Shown here one piece after another: positions 6,017-12,348 of a stretch of 30,337 nt of DNA. Made by a program: the position numbers and the translations under genes. Position 1 is the first letter of the stretch, and each line of letters begins with the position of its first letter. The DNA is taken from contig CAYNWC010000001.1 of assembly GCA_964400805.1 (NCBI GenBank), positions 1 through 30,337 on the forward strand. Direction: 5' to 3'. Origin of the DNA: an uncultured bacterium. Its GTDB lineage: Bacteria > Chlamydiota > Chlamydiia > Chlamydiales > SM23-39. The notes below the pieces were generated by a model that was given only the letters and a program-made list of their open reading frames with translations, did not search any database and was not told the DNA's origin.

Positions 6017-7336
6017 ATGCCTATTTCTAAAACGAAGCCGAAGAAACTGCTCCTTCTCACCTCGAGCGGCGGAGGGGGGCTTCTCCAAGCGGCCAACGCC
6101 AAAGAACAAGAGGCATTGGCCAAAAATCCCGACCTAGAAATCATCCGGATCGATGTACTCAAAGAATGGGCTCCTTTCAGCCGCTTCTGCATCCATTTTT
6201 GGAATAGCGCCCAGCAGAGCGGAAAAATCTGGATGCAAATGATCGCGGTGAGATACCAGTTTCTTTGGGATATTGTTTTGTTTCCCATTATTTTTGCTCG
6301 CTCTCTTTCTATTTATCTGAAGGAAGAGATCGATCAGATCATCGATACGCAATGTCTGGGCACTGCGGGTATCGTCAAGGCGGTTCGGGTTTATAATTGG
6401 TTGCGCGGGAAAAACTTACGGATCGAACTGATCCTTGTCGATCTCCCTACCAAGGAGGCGAACCACTTCTTTCGCCCCATCCGCAATCTCTCGAAAAGGA
6501 ACCGTCAATTGCTCCAAGTGACGGCGATCGCCCCTCTCTTAGATGAGGGAGAAACGGGGGAGCAATTTTGGCAAAAGACCTGCCGTCTTTCGGAAACAGA
6601 GATCTGCTATGAAGAGGCCTATATCAGACAGGCCTTCCACAAATACAAGCGGAAGAGCCGCCCCTCAGAGCCGTTCCACATTCGGTTGCGCTATAAAAAT
6701 AGGGAAGAGCTCGCTCTGATGCAGAGCGCTTTTCAAAAAGGGCCTATTTCCGCTTGCGCGAGCGTTGATGAAGTGGACTTCCGGATCGCCCCCGAAGACC
6801 GGATGGCGACGATTTTACTCGGCTCACAGCCCGCGGCAGAAGCCTCGCTCAACTATATGAAAACGTGGTCCGCCATGGCAAAGGAATACCCGGAGATCAC
6901 CACGCATCTCTTTGTTTTTTGCGGGGATCACAAAGAAGGGGAGCAGTCCCTCTTTAAGAGAATGGCCGACGCGGTGAGCGAAATCAAAGATTTCCCCAAG
7001 AATGTATCGATCATCCCCTTTTCCTTCCAAAACGAACATGTGATAGCGCCGCTGTTTTTCCGCAGCGACGTCACCTGCACCCGTTCGGGCGGGCAGACGG
7101 CGATGGAGCTCATGTCGGTGAGCACCGGAGAGATCTGGATCCATTCAGAGGCGAAAAAAGGGCAAGACATTCTCGAGGGAATTCCCGGATGGGAAGCGGC
7201 GAGCGCCCTTTATATGCAAAAACTGCATAAGGCGAAAATTGTAACGCCGGAGACGTTCACTCCTCTCGCGCGGCATTTGTATCAAACAAGTAATTCACAA
7301 GCCCAATCCAATCGCGCGCTTGAATCAACGGCTTAA
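6017..7336 (+). CDS. GT-B glycosyltransferase-like protein (MGDG synthase/UgtP, GT28-like)
   Basis: N-terminal KKLLLLTSSGGGGLLQAA aligns with the MGD1/UgtP loop (ILMSDTGGGHRASA); C-terminal DVTCTRSGGQTAMEL and IPGWE align with the GT28 nucleotide-sugar motifs. Confidence 0.7.
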   Translation: MPISKTKPKKLLLLTSSGGGGLLQAANAKEQEALAKNPDLEIIRIDVLKEWAPFSRFCIHFWNSAQQSGKIWMQMIAVRYQFLWDIVLFPIIFARSLSIYLKEEIDQIIDTQCLGTAGIVKAVRVYNWLRGKNLRIELILVDLPTKEANHFFRPIRNLSKRNRQLLQVTAIAPLLDEGETGEQFWQKTCRLSETEICYEEAYIRQAFHKYKRKSRPSEPFHIRLRYKNREELALMQSAFQKGPISACASVDEVDFRIAPEDRMATILLGSQPAAEASLNYMKTWSAMAKEYPEITTHLFVFCGDHKEGEQSLFKRMADAVSEIKDFPKNVSIIPFSFQNEHVIAPLFFRSDVTCTRSGGQTAMELMSVSTGEIWIHSEAKKGQDILEGIPGWEAASALYMQKLHKAKIVTPETFTPLARHLYQTSNSQAQSNRALESTA

Positions 7337-7907
7337 TGGGCCCGGGCGATTTTCCCATTTCCGCTGCGAAATCGGGGATGTAGCGATAGAGTTTAGTTCC
7401 TTCTCGCTCCATCCCTTTTCGGATCCCCTTAAGGATCTCTCCGATCTTAAACGAACTGCCTCCATTGAAAATAGTCCTCACGTGCTCTTTGGGGGCGGCT
7501 GCGAGAAAGGCAAATGGGTGGATCCCGTCGATTTGATCTCCCAATTGGATTAGCCTCCAGGCGGGGCCATCTTTATTGAAGGGATTTAAGAAAGAGCGAC
7601 CCAATTCGAGATACCCTTTTTCAGCAATTGTTTTAAAGATCTCCTGCACCTTTTCTTTTTCTTTTTTTTCCTCAGAGCAGCGGGGAAAACGGGGATTTTC
7701 CTCTACCGGCGCTTCACCCATTTGCGGCAGCCCAGGCTGAGGGACGGCGATGAAGAAAGAGCGTCTCTTTCTAAAGATAGCAGGACCTACTGCAACGATT
7801 GCAAAAAGGGCGTTGATTTCCAACGCAAGCCACCCGATCCGTTCCCAAGCGGGTTCTTCCGATTCTCCGGCGGCCGCGCTCTGAGAGCCAATGGCATCGA
7901 TTGCCAT
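7257..7907 (-). CDS. Hypothetical protein with one N-terminal TM segment, paralog of 7907-8410
   Basis: Likely start MAIDAIG at 7907 (TAATG overlap with the upstream stop). Shares EI..T.AE.G, G..I..(I/V)HP..FL, Y..(D/E)FA.E and W.GLV..L with its neighbour. Confidence 0.8.
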   Translation of the reverse strand: MAIDAIGSQSAAAGESEEPAWERIGWLALEINALFAIVAVGPAIFRKRRSFFIAVPQPGLPQMGEAPVEENPRFPRCSEEKKEKEKVQEIFKTIAEKGYLELGRSFLNPFNKDGPAWRLIQLGDQIDGIHPFAFLAAAPKEHVRTIFNGGSSFKIGEILKGIRKGMEREGTKLYRYIPDFAAEMGKSPGPIKPLIQARDWIGLVNYLFDTNAAREE

Positions 7908-8410
7908 TAGAGGGCGCTGTGGTGAATGAGGTGATGGACGAGACCTTCCCAATTGCGCGTGTCGAAAAAGCCCTGAATCGACTCATGCGGAACCTGGATC
8001 TCATCGGCAAATTCTTTGATATATTGATGCAATTTCCCTTTTTCGGCTTCTCGCGTTAACGAAGGGCAGAGGCCATCTAAAAAGTGATTCCATTTAAAGT
8101 AGTCTGCCCAAACGGCCGGCATACACATTTTCAAATGAGGGTCACAGAAGATGGTGCTGAGGAATTTGAGCGGATGGACGTGTTGGATCTCTCCCCCGAT
8201 TTCTTTGAGGTGGCCCTGCTTAAAGAGAGCGAGGTGGACTTTCCCGTTTTCAGCGACAGTGGTAATGATTTCATAGATGATCTTTCGATCGTCCTCATTG
8301 CAGGCGAGTTCCGCGTAGGTCAATTCGACCGGTTTGGCCGGCGGTTTCTTAATGATCGAGGCAGATGCAGAGAGGGTCAAACAGAGAACGAGAATCAGAA
8401 AACGGACCAT
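7907..8410 (-). CDS. Exported hypothetical protein (HPLKFL-motif helical domain)
   Basis: Signal peptide MVRFLILVLCLTLSASA; GGAG RBS; paralogous to the downstream gene. Confidence 0.85.
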   Translation of the reverse strand: MVRFLILVLCLTLSASASIIKKPPAKPVELTYAELACNEDDRKIIYEIITTVAENGKVHLALFKQGHLKEIGGEIQHVHPLKFLSTIFCDPHLKMCMPAVWADYFKWNHFLDGLCPSLTREAEKGKLHQYIKEFADEIQVPHESIQGFFDTRNWEGLVHHLIHHSAL

Positions 8411-8497: not shown

Positions 8498-9253
8498 ATG
8501 AGACGGATTCTCTTCTTCCTTTTCTTTGTCAGCGCGATGCTCTCTTTGCCCGCTTTGGCCAAGCGAGCGACCTATGGCTTTCGGGTGGCGAAAATCCAAT
8601 TCGATTTCCCCGCAGATCCTCAATGGGATACGCCGCTGTTCCCAGAAATTTCTGCGATTTTAAAACAGCCCTTTCGCTTTCTCGGAAAAGGGGCGCAGAG
8701 CTACGTATTTGAAAGCGCAGATCAACGCTATGTGATCAAACTGTTTCGCTCCTCCTCCCAAGAGAAGGTCGCGGACCTCTTTGCGGCTTGCAAGCTCGCC
8801 TTTGACCATCTTCGGGAGGAGACGGGTCTTGTCTATATCCACCTCAACCCCACCTCCCTCCAGCTTCCAACCCTCTTCTGTCGCGATGCGATTGGTCGCT
8901 CCTACCGCCTTCCTCTAGACCCCCTCCGGTTCGCCGTGCAAAAAAAGGCGACGCCTTTTCAGAGCACGCTGGTAAAAGCGCGCCAAAAACCCCGGCAAAT
9001 GGAGGCGCGGATCGATGCGTTTCTCTCGCTTTTGCGCGCGCGCGCTGCCAAGGGGATTTACAATCGCGATCCTAACCTGAACCGGAACTTTGGTTTTCTG
9101 GAAGAGGGGGCCATTGAGTTCGATTTTGGCCAATTTCGCTACGACCCTTCTTTGAACCAGAAAGAAGAGATCTCCCGCTTTGCTAAACGTCTGCGCCGTT
9201 GGCTGGCCAAGCATGATCCCGAATGGGTCGCTTACCTCGATGAACGTCTATGA
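8498..9253 (+). CDS. Exported or membrane-anchored protein-kinase-like fold protein
   Basis: N-terminal hydrophobic signal; Gly loop LGKGAQ, YVIKLF Lys, catalytic-loop-like RDPNLNRN, DFG. ATG 8498 preferred over TTG 8477. Confidence 0.75.
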   Translation: MRRILFFLFFVSAMLSLPALAKRATYGFRVAKIQFDFPADPQWDTPLFPEISAILKQPFRFLGKGAQSYVFESADQRYVIKLFRSSSQEKVADLFAACKLAFDHLREETGLVYIHLNPTSLQLPTLFCRDAIGRSYRLPLDPLRFAVQKKATPFQSTLVKARQKPRQMEARIDAFLSLLRARAAKGIYNRDPNLNRNFGFLEEGAIEFDFGQFRYDPSLNQKEEISRFAKRLRRWLAKHDPEWVAYLDERL

Positions 9254-10050
9254 AGAAAGGTTTTTTCATCCTCTCCATCGCCCTTGGCCTCTCTGCGATC
9301 GCCCATCTTCGTACCGATGGCTTTGCCCTCCACCGCATCCAAGCGCCTCTTCCCAACGCGTCGCTCGCCCCCCTGCCTCCTTCTGCCGAACAGGCCCTCT
9401 CGCAACCCTTCCACTATTTGGGAAAAGGGAGGCAATGCTTTGTCTTCGAAAGCGCTGACGGACAATACGTTCTGAAATTCTTCAACCAATCCTATCTACA
9501 AATGCCTTGGTACTCTTTTCTAATCAAAGAGAAGGAGCAAACCAAACGGGCCCGCCGCCGCCATTTTTATGAACACAGCTATGAAATTGCCTTTCGGAAG
9601 CTCGGCGAGGAGATCGTCTACCTGCATCTCGGCCCTTCGGATCGCCCTCTGCCTCTTCTGTCCCTCACCGATCGTTGAGGATGGGAGTTCGCTGTCTATT
9701 TGAACGCCTTGCCCTTTGTTCTACAGAGAAAAGGGATTCCGATCTACACGGTCCTTCAGGAGGTCTATGAGCGAGAAGGGCTAGATGGCCTATGCCGCGA
9801 GATCGACGCCTTTGTGGCTGCCGTCTCTCTTCGGATTGGCAAAGGAATCGCCGATGGGGATCACGATGTGGAACACAATTGGGGATATGTAGAGGGGAGG
9901 CTTTTCCATCTCGATCCGGGCCGTCTTTACTATGACGAGCGGCTCCAGGACCCTGCCCGCCTTCAGGTTGAATGGGAAGGAGCCACCCGCAACTTCCGCA
10001 AGTGGCTCCAATGTCATTATCCTGACGCTAGAAATCGAGCGCGGCTTTGA
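9250..10050 (+). pseudogene. Second kinase-like paralog interrupted by a single in-frame TGA (9676-9678)
   Basis: ORFs 9250-9678 and 9700-10050 share one frame. Read-through gives 266 aa colinear with the upstream paralog (LGKGRQ, YVLKFF, GDHDVEHN, DPG). ATGA overlap with the upstream gene. Confidence 0.8.
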
Positions 10051-11179
10051 CCGTTAACCCCTGCAAATATAAGTTCGGGGCGGAGGTGCCGATTCCCACG
10101 TCGGTGACGTCTGCTAAACTTCGCATCATGTTCTGATTCCAAAATACTTGGAAATCATAGGTGGCGAGAACATCGAAGTGGTATTTGCGGCTATTGAAAT
10201 AGTTGCCCCAGCCAAGGCCCAGATTTATCTCATTTACAGCTCTTAAACAATTGAGATCGGTGAATTGGGTAGAAACAGGAGCGCTTGTCGTGGTGGTTTT
10301 GCTGAGATTGCTGCTGACCTTGGTATATTGGGTAAAGAGAAGAGACGCAGCCATATCGCCCTCCGCTCTAAATCCCCAACGGAGATGCCATTTTGTATTA
10401 AAGCCCGCGCGAGGACCGACGGCCCACGAGTGAGATTTGGCATTATATGTCGAGAGAAGCCCAGCGGCGCCACCTCCTGACATATTCACCGTTACGCCAG
10501 AGATATCCAGGTTTTGCCGGATCCACTGTCCCCGTATTCCTCCAAAAGGAGCGACGATGAGATGGGTTCCTTGATAGTAAGGACGGCTGACTCCTACATC
10601 GGCCAAGTCCATATTGACGCGCCACTTCGAAGAGACCGAAGAGAGGGCTACTGAACCCGCGGTGCCATTATTGTTAGATACTACATACCAGGCGTCCATG
10701 AACCAAACAGGAGTCCCTCGGCTATCTGCAGGAGGAGCGCTGTTCGTTGTGGTTGTCGATCGGAACCACGCATATTCAGCGAATCCAATCCAGCCGTCGC
10801 GCCGAAGATCCATTCCTAGACCGATTTTAAATCCCGGCTTATATTGGTTGTCTTGAAAAAGAAAGGTGCCGCCAACGGGCGAGAAGAGGACATTGCTAGA
10901 AGAGACTGCTGTACTTTCTGCTAAATCCATCCCATCTTGCAAAGCTTCCCAATAGGTAAAGCTAGCGTCGATCCAATAGTCCCAGGCGCAATTCAATTCG
11001 TACTGAGCAGGTTCATTGTAAGCCGAGGGAAAGCAGCAATTTCTATTTGGGTAGCCTCTCTCAAAGCAGACAGGAGGGCAAGGTTTTGTACATTCGTTTG
11101 GCGCGCAGTTATTGGCGTCCAATAGCAGCGGCAATAGCAACAGACTCAGGCTAGTGGCAACTCTAGAAGAAAAGTTCAT
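10028..11179 (-). CDS. MOMP-like outer-membrane beta-barrel porin (Simkania MOMP-like / Lpg1974-like), copy 2
   Basis: Start MNFSSRV at 11179 with AAGGA RBS; signal peptide; Cys-rich N-terminus; amphipathic beta strands; C-terminal GLTVKAALDF with terminal Phe. Confidence 0.88.
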   Translation of the reverse strand: MNFSSRVATSLSLLLLPLLLDANNCAPNECTKPCPPVCFERGYPNRNCCFPSAYNEPAQYELNCAWDYWIDASFTYWEALQDGMDLAESTAVSSSNVLFSPVGGTFLFQDNQYKPGFKIGLGMDLRRDGWIGFAEYAWFRSTTTTNSAPPADSRGTPVWFMDAWYVVSNNNGTAGSVALSSVSSKWRVNMDLADVGVSRPYYQGTHLIVAPFGGIRGQWIRQNLDISGVTVNMSGGGAAGLLSTYNAKSHSWAVGPRAGFNTKWHLRWGFRAEGDMAASLLFTQYTKVSSNLSKTTTTSAPVSTQFTDLNCLRAVNEINLGLGWGNYFNSRKYHFDVLATYDFQVFWNQNMMRSLADVTDVGIGTSAPNLYLQGLTVKAALDF

Positions 11180-11199
11180 TTTTATTTCCTTTTGTAAGA

Positions 11200-12348
11200 T
11201 TAGAAATCGAGCGCGGCTTTGATCGTTAAACCTTGCAAGTATAAATTCGGCACGGATCCTTCGGTGCGAACAGAAAGATCGTTTGCTACGGCTCTCATCA
11301 TATTTTGGTTCCAAAATATTTGGAAATCATAGGTGGCGAGAAAATCGATGTGGTATTTGCGGCAATTCGAGTAGCTGCCCCAGCCAATTCCTAGATTCAT
11401 TTCATTGACGGCTCTTAAGCAATTGAGATCGGGAAATCGGCCAGAAACAGGGATGCTCGTGGTGGTTGTTGCGCTCAGATGGCTGCTTGCCTGTGTATAT
11501 TGGGTAAAGAGAAGGGAGGCAGCCAAAGCGCCTTCGGCTCTAAATCCCCAGCGGACATGCCATTTTGTATTAAAGCCTGCGCGAGGACCTACCGCCCACG
11601 AATGGGACTTGATGTTACATGTAGCGAAGAGATCTGCTGTTCCGCTGATTCCTTCATCGGCGGTGATGCCAGAGATATCCAAACTTTGCCGGATCCATTG
11701 TCCTCTGACTCCGCCAAAAGGGGCCACGATGAGGTGAGTTCCTTGATAGCAGGGGCGGCTTACCCCTACATCGGCCAAGTCCATATTGAGTTGCCACTTC
11801 GAGGAGAGTGAGGAGAGAGCTGTTGAACCGGCAGGCACAGTGCCATCGCCAGATAACACATACCAGCTGTTCACGCTCCAAACGGCAGCTCCCCGACTGT
11901 CTGCAGGAGGGGTCCGATGGGTGCTGGTCACTGACCGGAACCACGTATATTCACCGAATCCAATCCAACCATCGCGCCGGAAATCAACCCCCAGACCCAC
12001 TTTGAATCCAGGTTTATACTCTGTATCTTGAAAGAGGTAGTTGCCTCCATCGGGCGAAAAGAGGATGGAAGTGGAAGGGGATAGGGCTGTGTTCACCGCC
12101 AAATCCATTCCCTCCTGGAGGGCTTCCCAATAGGTGAAGCTCGCATCGATCCAATAGTCCCAGGCGCAACCCACTTCATACTGAGCGGGTTCATTATAAG
12201 CGGCGGGAAAACAACATTTTGTATTTGGGTAGCCCCGTTCAAAACAAACTGGAGGAGCCTGACATTCTTTCGGACAATTATTTTGTGCGGTCAATACCAG
12301 TGGCAATAGCAGAAGGCCTGTAGCAGCGAATTTCGCAGTGATGTTCAT
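11200..12348 (-). CDS. MOMP-like outer-membrane beta-barrel porin, copy 1
   Basis: Signal peptide, Cys-rich N-terminus, YKPGFKVGLG, AVGPRAG, C-terminal GLTIKAALDF; colinear with its neighbour. Confidence 0.88.
   Translation of the reverse strand: MNITAKFAATGLLLLPLVLTAQNNCPKECQAPPVCFERGYPNTKCCFPAAYNEPAQYEVGCAWDYWIDASFTYWEALQEGMDLAVNTALSPSTSILFSPDGGNYLFQDTEYKPGFKVGLGVDFRRDGWIGFGEYTWFRSVTSTHRTPPADSRGAAVWSVNSWYVLSGDGTVPAGSTALSSLSSKWQLNMDLADVGVSRPCYQGTHLIVAPFGGVRGQWIRQSLDISGITADEGISGTADLFATCNIKSHSWAVGPRAGFNTKWHVRWGFRAEGALAASLLFTQYTQASSHLSATTTTSIPVSGRFPDLNCLRAVNEMNLGIGWGSYSNCRKYHIDFLATYDFQIFWNQNMMRAVANDLSVRTEGSVPNLYLQGLTIKAALDF

Follow-up and report, generated by a model that had tools for sequence, protein, structure and literature searches.

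Tandem kinase-like paralogues with export-type N-termini from a large chlamydial family

To our knowledge, hardly any kinases have been described that act beyond the cytoplasm of bacteria, as ATP is assumed to be lacking there. The secretory-pathway kinases of eukaryotes (POMK/SGK196, Fam20, VLK, and FAM69) combine a signal or type II anchor with a kinase fold, in a compartment with imported ATP. Chlamydiae are a natural exception to the expected lack of ATP, since host ATP is imported across the periplasm. Small bacterial kinase-fold enzymes are found at the membrane (WaaP, WaaY, and KdkA; PF06293), and the PhoP-regulated protein YrbL (PF10707) is a minimal kinase-like protein of about 200 residues and of unknown function. 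We know of no N-terminal signal in WaaP, WaaY, or KdkA and of no export signal in YrbL. Other relevant proteins are AceK, a cytoplasmic protein of 570 residues that carries a large regulatory domain but no signal, and RIO1, RIO2, and Bud32, which are cytoplasmic or nuclear ATPases associated with ribosomes and tRNA. The RIO proteins and Bud32 have a minimal kinase core that lacks an activation segment and substrate-binding subdomains.

Here we describe two adjoining genes, kin1 and kin2, from an uncultured soil chlamydia. Each encodes a small protein with a predicted kinase fold. The window, which is the whole stretch of DNA that we analyzed, is 30,337 nucleotides long. Our best explanation, with a probability of roughly 0.55, is that kin1 and kin2 are anciently diverged and co-transcribed paralogues from a chlamydia-only family of phosphotransferases, and that their catalytic domains most likely lie outside the cytoplasm.

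The gene pair and its predicted fold

The features of the pair are listed below, by their position in the window. The ATGA overlap and the first two motifs of kin2 are read from the DNA and its translation.

8498 to 9253, plus strand: kin1 (gene 1), an open reading frame of 251 amino acids with an N-terminal signal or anchor and then a compact protein-kinase-like domain
8498 to 8560, plus strand: export-type N-terminal segment of kin1 (residues 1–21), with MRR, a 14-residue hydrophobic core, and P-A-L-A
8681 to 8698, plus strand: Gly-rich loop of kin1, LGKGAQ; G65 and Q67 are kept across the family
8738 to 8740, plus strand: beta-3 lysine of kin1, K81, within YVIKLF; Lys in 301 of 301 aligned members
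9068 to 9088, plus strand: catalytic-loop motif of kin1, D191-x5-N197 (DPNLNRN)
9122 to 9130, plus strand: DFG of kin1 (D209-F-G211), the metal-binding Asp motif
9250 to 9253, plus strand: ATGA overlap of the kin1 stop and the kin2 start (translational coupling)
9250 to 10050, plus strand: kin2 (gene 2), 266 codons and one internal stop
9418 to 9435, plus strand: Gly loop of kin2, LGKGRQ
9475 to 9477, plus strand: beta-3 lysine of kin2, in YVLKFF
9676 to 9678, plus strand: in-frame TGA at codon 143 of kin2; the hairpin region that holds it is variable
9859 to 9879, plus strand: catalytic-loop motif of kin2, DHDVEHN, also supported by the alignment of the kin2 group
9913 to 9921, plus strand: DPG of kin2, where kin1 has DFG; the kin2 group keeps the Asp and the Pro without exception

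A first-pass annotation had read a signal- or anchor-like segment, a Gly loop, a beta-3 lysine, a D-x5-N motif, and DFG or DPG in both genes, and all of these are present. The ATGA coupling that it reported is present as well and also occurs in two genomes of the same genus. As it proposed, kin1 and kin2 are true paralogues, with 33% identity over 258 columns (E = 2e-35). kin2 belongs to a distinct and conserved group of orthologues with the motifs GKGRQ, DxDVEHN, and DPG. A scan for promoters and terminators found nothing that exceeded the shuffled expectation.

In both genes, the Gly loop, the beta-3 lysine, the catalytic Asp and Asn, and the DFG Asp occur in the usual order. Among 301 aligned homologues, G65, K81, Q148, N197, and D209 are each conserved in 300 or 301, D191 in 298, and H115 in 296. 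The motif residues are 99–100% conserved, which is far beyond chance, so members of the family are probably active enzymes. The spacing from the catalytic Asp to the Asn (D-x5-N) is one residue longer than in classical kinases, and no alpha-C Glu is conserved at 85% in the 301-sequence alignment. Gln148 and His115 are near-invariant and specific to the family. By analogy, the Gly loop and the beta-3 lysine would hold the nucleotide, the Asp of DFG or DPG and the loop Asn would hold the metal, and the loop Asp would act as the base.

The AlphaFold2 models of kin1 (pLDDT 97.1) and of a kin2 orthologue from another genome (G159; pLDDT 87.2) both have a compact protein-kinase-like fold. Foldseek matched kin1 to CK2, AceK, Lpg2603, and RIO2 (E about 1e-5). 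VIA matched kin1 to AceK (Z = 11.6 over 190 residues, rmsd 3.5), RIO1 (10.7), Bud32 (10.3), and POMK (9.9), and matched the kin2 orthologue to AceK (10.5 over 207 residues), RIO2 (9.8), and POMK (8.3). The top 50 VIA and Foldseek matches in PDB were kinases without exception, including many of the eukaryotic type. The first-pass annotation had claimed a kinase fold and suggested a Foldseek comparison with protein-kinase-like (PKL) families; these models and structural matches support the claim for both types of paralogue. Given the predicted bilobal fold and the motif set in order, kin1, kin2, and their relatives are assigned to the PKL superfamily. We also predicted the complex of the intact kin1-kin2 pair from G159, with the N-terminal segments removed; the score was 0.00, which is not evidence for or against a heterodimer.

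None of the known kinases appears to be a close relative. The kinase domain of AceK (PDB 3EPS, 3LC6, and 6K5L) is the best structural match to both types of paralogue and also leads a search of Swiss-Prot AlphaFold models, and it shares the compact bilobal ATP-binding core. However, identity to AceK is only 13–17%, there is no sequence-profile match, and kin1 has no second domain. Because AceK's Z score is tied with those of many ordinary kinases, the likeness is at the level of the fold and not of family membership. RIO1, RIO2, and Bud32 (Z of 9.5–10.7; TM of 0.52 for Bud32) resemble the family in their minimal core, but the family has no Pfam match to them, and they lack its invariant Gln148 and His115 as well as its N-terminal signal. 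The secretory-pathway kinases are larger and disulfide-rich, and beyond the common fold no specific closeness to the family was evident: POMK sits among a crowd of ordinary kinases, and Fam20 is not among the matches listed.

As for the small bacterial kinases, one AlphaFold cluster with a WaaP/WaaY/KdkA-type name was matched (TM = 0.47), but the PF06293 model did not match kin1, kin2, or any of 46 aligned members at E ≤ 1. Across the whole genome, PF06293 hit three other loci but missed all four copies of the family, which by HMM places the family outside the known Kdo/WaaP-type kinases, as the first-pass annotation had supposed. YrbL is the nearest named cluster by protein-language-model features, with a score (0.90) at the level of a lead only; PF10707 is carried by 22% of the members of this YrbL-like cluster and did not match our family. 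Finally, the models for eukaryotic-type kinases (PF00069 and PF07714) did not match either gene or the 46 relatives at E ≤ 1. Eukaryotic-type Ser/Thr/Tyr kinases have an activation segment with APE and an alphaF–alphaI lobe, whereas in the kin1 model, DFG is followed by only about 10 residues and two helices, with no activation segment.

The in-frame TGA of kin2

The motifs of kin2 are in place, as the first-pass annotation reported, but it overlooked the TGA at 9676–9678, which splits kin2 in the window into two open reading frames (9250–9678 and 9700–10050). If the TGA is real, then kin2 could be a pseudogene in this organism and the system could be decaying to a single kinase. The TGA is present in the assembled sequence, and TGA is a normal stop here, because kin1 ends with it. 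(The same fact led us to reject recoding of TGA. Matches in some other genomes were also flagged as containing a TGA, but the one that we examined, in genome G253, was the terminal stop of the gene.) On the other hand, the depth is only about 3–5x, and no contig confirms the TGA: the single public contig that spans the site, which is 254 nt long and comes from run X2 with a depth of 3.3 and 6 differences, has GGA, encoding Gly. Also, kin2 has no further lesions and all of its downstream motifs are still in frame. The orthologues of kin2 are uninterrupted in 14 of 14 aligned loci, with lengths of 270–302 amino acids and with A, G, S, I, or L at the position of codon 143. We consider a decaying kin2 to be doubtful. 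The TGA is probably a strain variant (a nonsense change) or an assembly error, and not a property of the system.

Range, arrays, and neighbors of the family

Counting clusters at 50% identity, the family has about 2,500 clusters (2,533 cluster representatives); a word index found 126 homologues. Of 300 genomes sampled across the phylum, 219 had a match; there was none in the 29 genomes from one family with genomes of 1.0–1.3 Mb, which is probably the Chlamydiaceae. The named carriers are chlamydial isolates or MAGs, or else MAGs that are labelled as Verrucomicrobia, as “uncultured bacterium”, or, once, as Acidobacteriota. We read every named record as either chlamydial or a mislabelled MAG, which agrees with the initial view of this as a chlamydial family.

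The family had also been described as uncharacterized, and we found nothing to change that. Pfam and NCBIfam gave only a weak match to FTA2 (E = 0.018), which we take to be a kinase-clan family. Searching the PDB sequences with the family's profile found no kinase chain, just two chance matches (E about 0.4). All of the homologues' database names are “hypothetical,” including those from Waddlia chondrophila (ADI38011.1) and Protochlamydia amoebophila (WP_044045460.1), which are cultivable. Literature searches by words and by accessions found no description of the family, and where a paper on the chlamydial pangenome discusses protein kinases, it names just CopN and Pkn5.

Members of the family usually lie in same-strand arrays of 2–8 genes, with about 3.8 copies per 8.8 kb. 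Neighbors within an array are about 30–35% identical. This genome has four copies, and genomes from one chlamydial family have at least 8. At least 14 loci retain the order kin1 then kin2, and the margins of orthology are large.

Two features upstream of kin1 are syntenic with the pair:

6017 to 7336, plus strand: a 439-amino-acid protein with no Pfam match, MGDG-synthase-like according to the first-pass annotation; syntenic upstream
7257 to 8410, minus strand: a divergent pair of small exported or anchored paralogues (231 and 167 amino acids), syntenic with the kinase pair

When we clustered the neighbors at 77 loci, the 439-amino-acid gene was present in 13 and relatives of the small paralogues adjoined the kinase pair in 16. 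PHO4, DUF1761, BrkB, PMI, HSP20, Vut_1, and an unnamed exported protein of 274 amino acids were also syntenic. No conserved neighbor at these loci names a substrate. Elsewhere in this genome, a third paralogue overlaps lptG by 4 nt, in the operon lptF-lptG-kinase-M32 peptidase. The overlap recurs in several relatives, and no fewer than four other lineages or records show the same gene order. We considered a link to LPS export as a clue to the entire family and rejected it. The association is limited to some lineages: it is absent from one genome of the same genus, and in 40 genomes from 20 chlamydial families, no family member lies within 1.5 kb downstream of lptG (a positive control worked).

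Export, topology, and proposed role

In nearly all of the standalone members that we analyzed, 1–3 Lys or Arg at the start are followed by a hydrophobic stretch. Its median length in 111 diverse representatives is 15 residues, and in 37 of them it has just 11–12, which is too short to span a membrane and is typical of a signal peptide. The flanks of the stretch have charges of +2.25 on the N-terminal side versus +1.77 on the C-terminal side, with the N-terminal flank more positive in 57 representatives and less positive in 34. The charged N-terminus and the short hydrophobic stretch fit a Sec signal or anchor, so export of the family by this route is likely. (A Tat signal was rejected: relatives often have KR or KK instead of the twin Arg. 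A conserved disulfide was rejected as a marker of export: no conserved pair is evident, and in the alignment, by eye, the two semi-conserved Cys do not co-vary.) Relatives with two fused domains have a single hydrophobic segment, at the N-terminus, and the second domain is not preceded by one.

The kin1 group has features of its own. kin1 starts with MRR, then has 18 uncharged residues that end with PALA, and then KR; kin2 starts with MKK and 15 uncharged residues. PALA before KR is a site of the A-x-A type, which the kin1 group has and the kin2 group lacks, and it puts KR directly at the putative cleavage site. Immediately C-terminal of residues 1–21 is a conserved basic motif, KRxTxGFRxAK, and the mean net charge in the kin1 subfamily is about +3 over the 15 residues that follow the stretch, versus +2 before it. 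In E. coli, positive charges right after the signal segment hinder Sec export, so this cluster, together with the position of the KR, speaks against easy Sec export of kin1. Furthermore, the hydrophobic segment of kin1 (ML-S/T-L-P) shows unusual conservation, and its model is a single long helix of high confidence (residues 2–25). Both features are more in keeping with a permanent anchor than with a signal that is cleaved.

We propose that kin1 and kin2 are co-transcribed members of a large family of compact (~220-residue) PKL phosphotransferases, which we found only in chlamydiae. A Sec-type signal or signal anchor would place the catalytic domain outside the cytoplasm, either tethered to the inner membrane or released from it. 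There it could use host-derived ATP that is passing through the periplasm to the NTT carriers. The acceptor might be an envelope protein or a glycolipid, or else a molecule that comes from the host. The first-pass annotation viewed the source of ATP outside the cytoplasm as an open question, but this objection is weaker than it was put: chlamydial ATP/ADP translocases import host ATP, and this genome has four NTT/TLC nucleotide carriers, which implies that host ATP must cross the periplasm. There is also a precedent for an exported chlamydial nucleotide kinase, as WcNdk2 from Waddlia has a signal peptide and leaves the bacterium (PMC13318545).

If instead the N-terminal helix is an inner-membrane anchor and the catalytic domain faces the cytoplasm, then the substrates might be membrane lipids, LPS, or glycolipid precursors, as for WaaP, WaaY, and KdkA but with enzymes of another family. 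ATP is certainly present on that side, and the basic motif right after the helix of kin1 would fit, as would the more positive C-terminal flank in 64 of 87 members of its subfamily. A minimal core without an activation segment is also seen in small-molecule and atypical kinases, and the third paralogue's overlap with lptG, in its conserved order, points the same way. However, the near-universal positive N-terminus would then need to move across the membrane, and in a third of the diverse members (37 of 111) the uncharged stretch is too short for a transmembrane anchor. The lptG link is confined to some lineages, the Kdo/WaaP model matches no copy in this genome, and a role as LPS core kinases would hardly account by itself for arrays of 5–8 paralogues. 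We consider a cytoplasmic domain to be unlikely. We also considered that the proteins might leave the bacterium altogether, for instance by type II secretion, and act as effector kinases in the inclusion or the host cytosol. Tandem expansion and fast divergence, as in these arrays, are typical of host-interaction families, and the best Foldseek matches include Lpg2603, an effector kinase of Legionella. In Waddlia, WcNdk2 and CPAF, which bear signal peptides, are found in the host cytosol (PMC13318545, PMC7143554). But the juxtamembrane motif and the hydrophobic segment suggest that the anchor is retained, and the kin1/kin2 pair is kept one-to-one across deep divergence, which is not typical of effector turnover. 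In the accessible part of the Waddlia host-cytosol secretome, no protein was recognizable as a family member in a search made without the locus tag of the Waddlia homologue. So effector kinases seem improbable.

A kinase-like fold might also support some other chemistry, such as ATPase switching (as in RIO and Bud32) or the AMPylation or glutamylation known from SelO and SidJ. In favor of this, the best structural matches include the RIO proteins and Bud32, the D-x5-N loop has an atypical spacing, no conserved alpha-C Glu was seen, and Gln148 and His115 are peculiar to the family. Against it, the full canonical set of Gly loop, Lys, Asp and Asn, and DFG Asp is present in the usual order, and, judging by sequence motifs rather than by the coordinates of the pocket, nothing indicates a flipped nucleotide pose. 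We give such chemistry little weight and favor phosphotransfer outside the cytoplasm.

This family accounts for several of the “hypothetical proteins” in each environmental chlamydial genome. Since it was not found in the 29 small genomes, which are probably Chlamydiaceae, its presence may set environmental chlamydiae apart from pathogenic ones. Even should the domain prove to be cytoplasmic, the family is a new one of the kinase-like type and merits a database model. It is large, conserved, and unannotated, and with its intact kinase active site and export-type N-terminus, it allows a direct test of whether such enzymes act outside the cytoplasm. Tentatively, environmental chlamydiae might phosphorylate targets in the periplasm or on the cell surface with an expanded set of membrane-tethered mini-kinases, from 2 to 8 or more per genome, that are fed by host ATP en route to the NTT carriers. 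If so, these would be a bacterial counterpart to the secretory-pathway kinases of eukaryotes.

The gene pair and its predicted fold

The tandem kinase-fold gene feature is real: 8498–10050 is filled by two ORFs, both on the same strand.

8498–9253, + strand: kin1 (the first gene), an intact ORF of 251 amino acids
9250–10050, + strand: kin2 (the second gene), which starts inside the ATGA that ends kin1 and is listed as the ORFs 9250–9678 and 9700–10050, in one frame
9676–9678, + strand: in-frame TGA in kin2, seen in the sequence

The first-pass annotation had described ATGA-coupled paralogs with kinase motifs, and both points held up. Every motif was found in kin1 and kin2, kin2 starts within the terminal ATGA of kin1, and their products share 33% identity over 258 columns (E = 2e-35).

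Whether the internal stop of kin2 is real is rather doubtful. Parts of this stretch are present in four soil-metagenome runs, at a depth of about 3–5x, and the sole contig across 9676–9678 (254 nt, with 6 differences from the window) has GGA, or glycine. The TGA site corresponds to a variable hairpin, where orthologs have A, G, S, I, or L, and 14 of the 14 aligned orthologs are uninterrupted, including two from the same genus. The interruption is confined to the present assembly only, and we read it either as a nonsense change at the strain level or as an assembly error due to low coverage. We also considered recoding of TGA and rejected it: because kin1 ends with TGA, this codon is an ordinary stop in the organism.

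Neither protein has a family match in Pfam, NCBIfam, or the sequences in PDB. An AlphaFold2 model of kin1, built from an alignment of 46 sequences, has a mean pLDDT of 97.1, and all of its Foldseek matches are kinases (CK2, AceK, Lpg2603 of Legionella, and RIO2; E around 1e-5, TM 0.40–0.46). In a structure search independent of Foldseek, the top match was the kinase domain of AceK (Z = 11.6, 190 residues, rmsd 3.5), followed by FES, PINK1, RIO1, Bud32, and POMK at Z = 10–11. The intact kin2 ortholog from a same-genus genome was modeled at a pLDDT of 87.2 and gave the same picture (AceK, Z = 10.5; RIO2, 9.8; RIO1, 9.5). So, as had been proposed from the motifs, the modeled fold is protein-kinase-like, and none of the solved families stands out. 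Membership in a known Kdo/WaaP-type family had been named as part of one alternative; by the sequence tests we ran, these proteins do not belong to the Pkinase, Kdo/WaaP, AceK, or YrbL families. The kin1 model is minimal, with about 10 residues and two helices past the DFG and no activation segment. In their mode of working, the kin proteins would be closest to a minimal atypical kinase at the level of AceK, RIO, or Bud32. In architecture (a signal or anchor and then a kinase domain), they are like the eukaryotic secretory-pathway kinases.

Across 301 aligned relatives, the Gly-loop glycine is conserved in 300, the beta-3 lysine in 301, the loop aspartate in 298, the loop asparagine in 300, and the DFG aspartate in 300. 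Gln148 (301/301) and His115 (296/301) are conserved and specific to the family, and the spacing of the loop Asp and Asn is the classical one plus one residue. No candidate for the alpha-C glutamate reached 85% conservation in this alignment. The conservation is the pattern expected from sequence for active enzymes, not pseudokinases.

A large chlamydial family

The kin family is large, chlamydia-specific, and unannotated. A word-index search turned up 126 relatives, every one of them "hypothetical" and, where named, from a chlamydial MAG; with an exhaustive profile search we obtained 2,533 cluster representatives, and for 1,822 the E value was below 1e-30. Named records are from chlamydial MAGs (including Rhabdochlamydiaceae, Parachlamydiaceae, and Waddlia), and the rest are from MAGs labeled Verrucomicrobia, "uncultured bacterium," or, once, Acidobacteriota. 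Our literature search found no paper describing the family, which agrees with its earlier description as uncharacterized. In a sample of the phylum, 219 of 300 genomes had a match; one family, presumably Chlamydiaceae, had none in 29 genomes (1.0–1.3 Mb in 1–10 contigs). The MAG that contains the window is 80% complete and has four copies. Three proteins of 500–564 amino acids (P0121, P0123, and P0127) are natural fusions of two kin-family domains. The cultivated carriers are Waddlia chondrophila (ADI38011.1/D6YV50) and Protochlamydia amoebophila (WP_044045460.1), and both proteins are unnamed. In the best family member from each, DIG replaces DFG and the D-x5-N loop is DxALMQN.

We found 294 family ORFs in 77 loci, nearly always in same-strand arrays of 2–8. 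The arrangement in the window is the short version of a conserved one (DUF1761, a 439-amino-acid gene, two small divergent paralogs, kin1, kin2, BrkB, and PMI), which is present in about 14–16 loci. A second type, with several examples labeled Rhabdochlamydiaceae, has PHO4, an exported 274-amino-acid protein, 5–8 kinases, HSP20, and Vut_1. By best-hit typing, the order kin1 then kin2 is clear in at least 14 loci, sometimes with a kin4 type ahead; the pair is therefore old, with both members kept.

10028–12348, - strand: two tandem MOMP-like porin genes, between kin2 and BrkB
L049:1228–2052: example of the 274-amino-acid protein, with 25 other loci likewise

The one porin that we scanned matched Pfam Legionella_OMP (E = 1.4e-17). 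In the same-genus genome, BrkB directly follows kin2, with no porin genes at that position. The first porin ORF, in its listed form, shares 23 bp with the 3' end of kin2 and 115 bp with the second porin ORF, and the true start of the first one therefore probably lies further downstream. Pfam has no match for the 274-amino-acid protein, which is unnamed, apparently beta-rich, and equipped with a clear signal peptide. In 26 of 77 loci it is encoded immediately upstream of the kinase arrays, most often with PHO4 on one side and the first kinase on the other. By hhalign (probability of 0.2%), this protein and the kin family are unrelated.

Substrate clues from gene neighborhoods

L002:918–2842, contig C121 of the window's own genome: third paralog (279 amino acids) in an lptF-lptG-kinase-M32 carboxypeptidase operon

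The third paralog overlaps lptG by 4 nt, and several related MAGs share this gene order. The link to lptG is absent from one same-genus genome, and in none of 40 genomes sampled from 20 other chlamydial families did the 1.5 kb downstream of lptG contain a family member; as a substrate clue, the link was downgraded. In W. chondrophila (L151:496–2424) and P. amoebophila (L101:4207–6938), the best family member is divergent from a putative fabI (enoyl-ACP reductase), so called from the look of its N-terminal sequence. Together with the 439-amino-acid gene, BrkB, and the porins, this context says "envelope" and no more, and no substrate can be named from it.

Location of the catalytic domain and ATP supply

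We propose that the catalytic domain is extracytoplasmic and probably tethered, with a probability of roughly 0.6 from the N-terminal sequences. The evidence is residue and charge counts on family sequences, including 111 diverse representatives. Nearly all standalone members analyzed start with 1–3 Lys/Arg and then directly a hydrophobic stretch, whose median length in the 111 representatives is 15 residues; in 37 of them it has only 11–12, which is too short for a membrane span and typical of signal peptides. Fused two-domain relatives have one N-terminal hydrophobic segment and none ahead of the second domain, which marks the segment as a targeting element rather than a piece of the fold. 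The mean charge is +2.25 in the N-flank versus +1.77 in the C-flank (N > C in 57 representatives, N < C in 34). In kin1, P-A-L-A precedes KR. Export of the family looks plausible.

A catalytic domain that faces the cytoplasm seems rather unlikely, and its case comes from the kin1 subfamily. In these proteins the uncharged stretch is exactly 18 residues long and includes a conserved ML-S/T-L-P; next comes KRxTxGFRxAK, also conserved, whose net charge is about +3. In E. coli, such a positive C-flank would hinder Sec export and favor the cytoplasm for the C-terminal side. Also, the N-terminal helix of kin1 is modeled at very high confidence, which suits an anchor that is kept better than a signal that is cleaved off. 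One of the two small paralogs at 7257–8410 (- strand) has a clear signal peptide (MVR..SASA) and a positive mature start, SIIKKPPAK; judging from this single case, exported proteins of the organism may tolerate a positive mature N-terminus.

An extracytoplasmic kinase would need ATP there. Host ATP can reach the chlamydial ATP/ADP translocases (NTT carriers) only by passing through the outer membrane and the periplasm, so that periplasmic ATP would be expected in the phylum. The window's own genome has four TLC/NTT carriers. Ndk2 of Waddlia, which has a signal peptide (SignalP 0.999) and reaches host compartments, is a precedent in this group for exported nucleotide-handling enzymes (PMC13318545).
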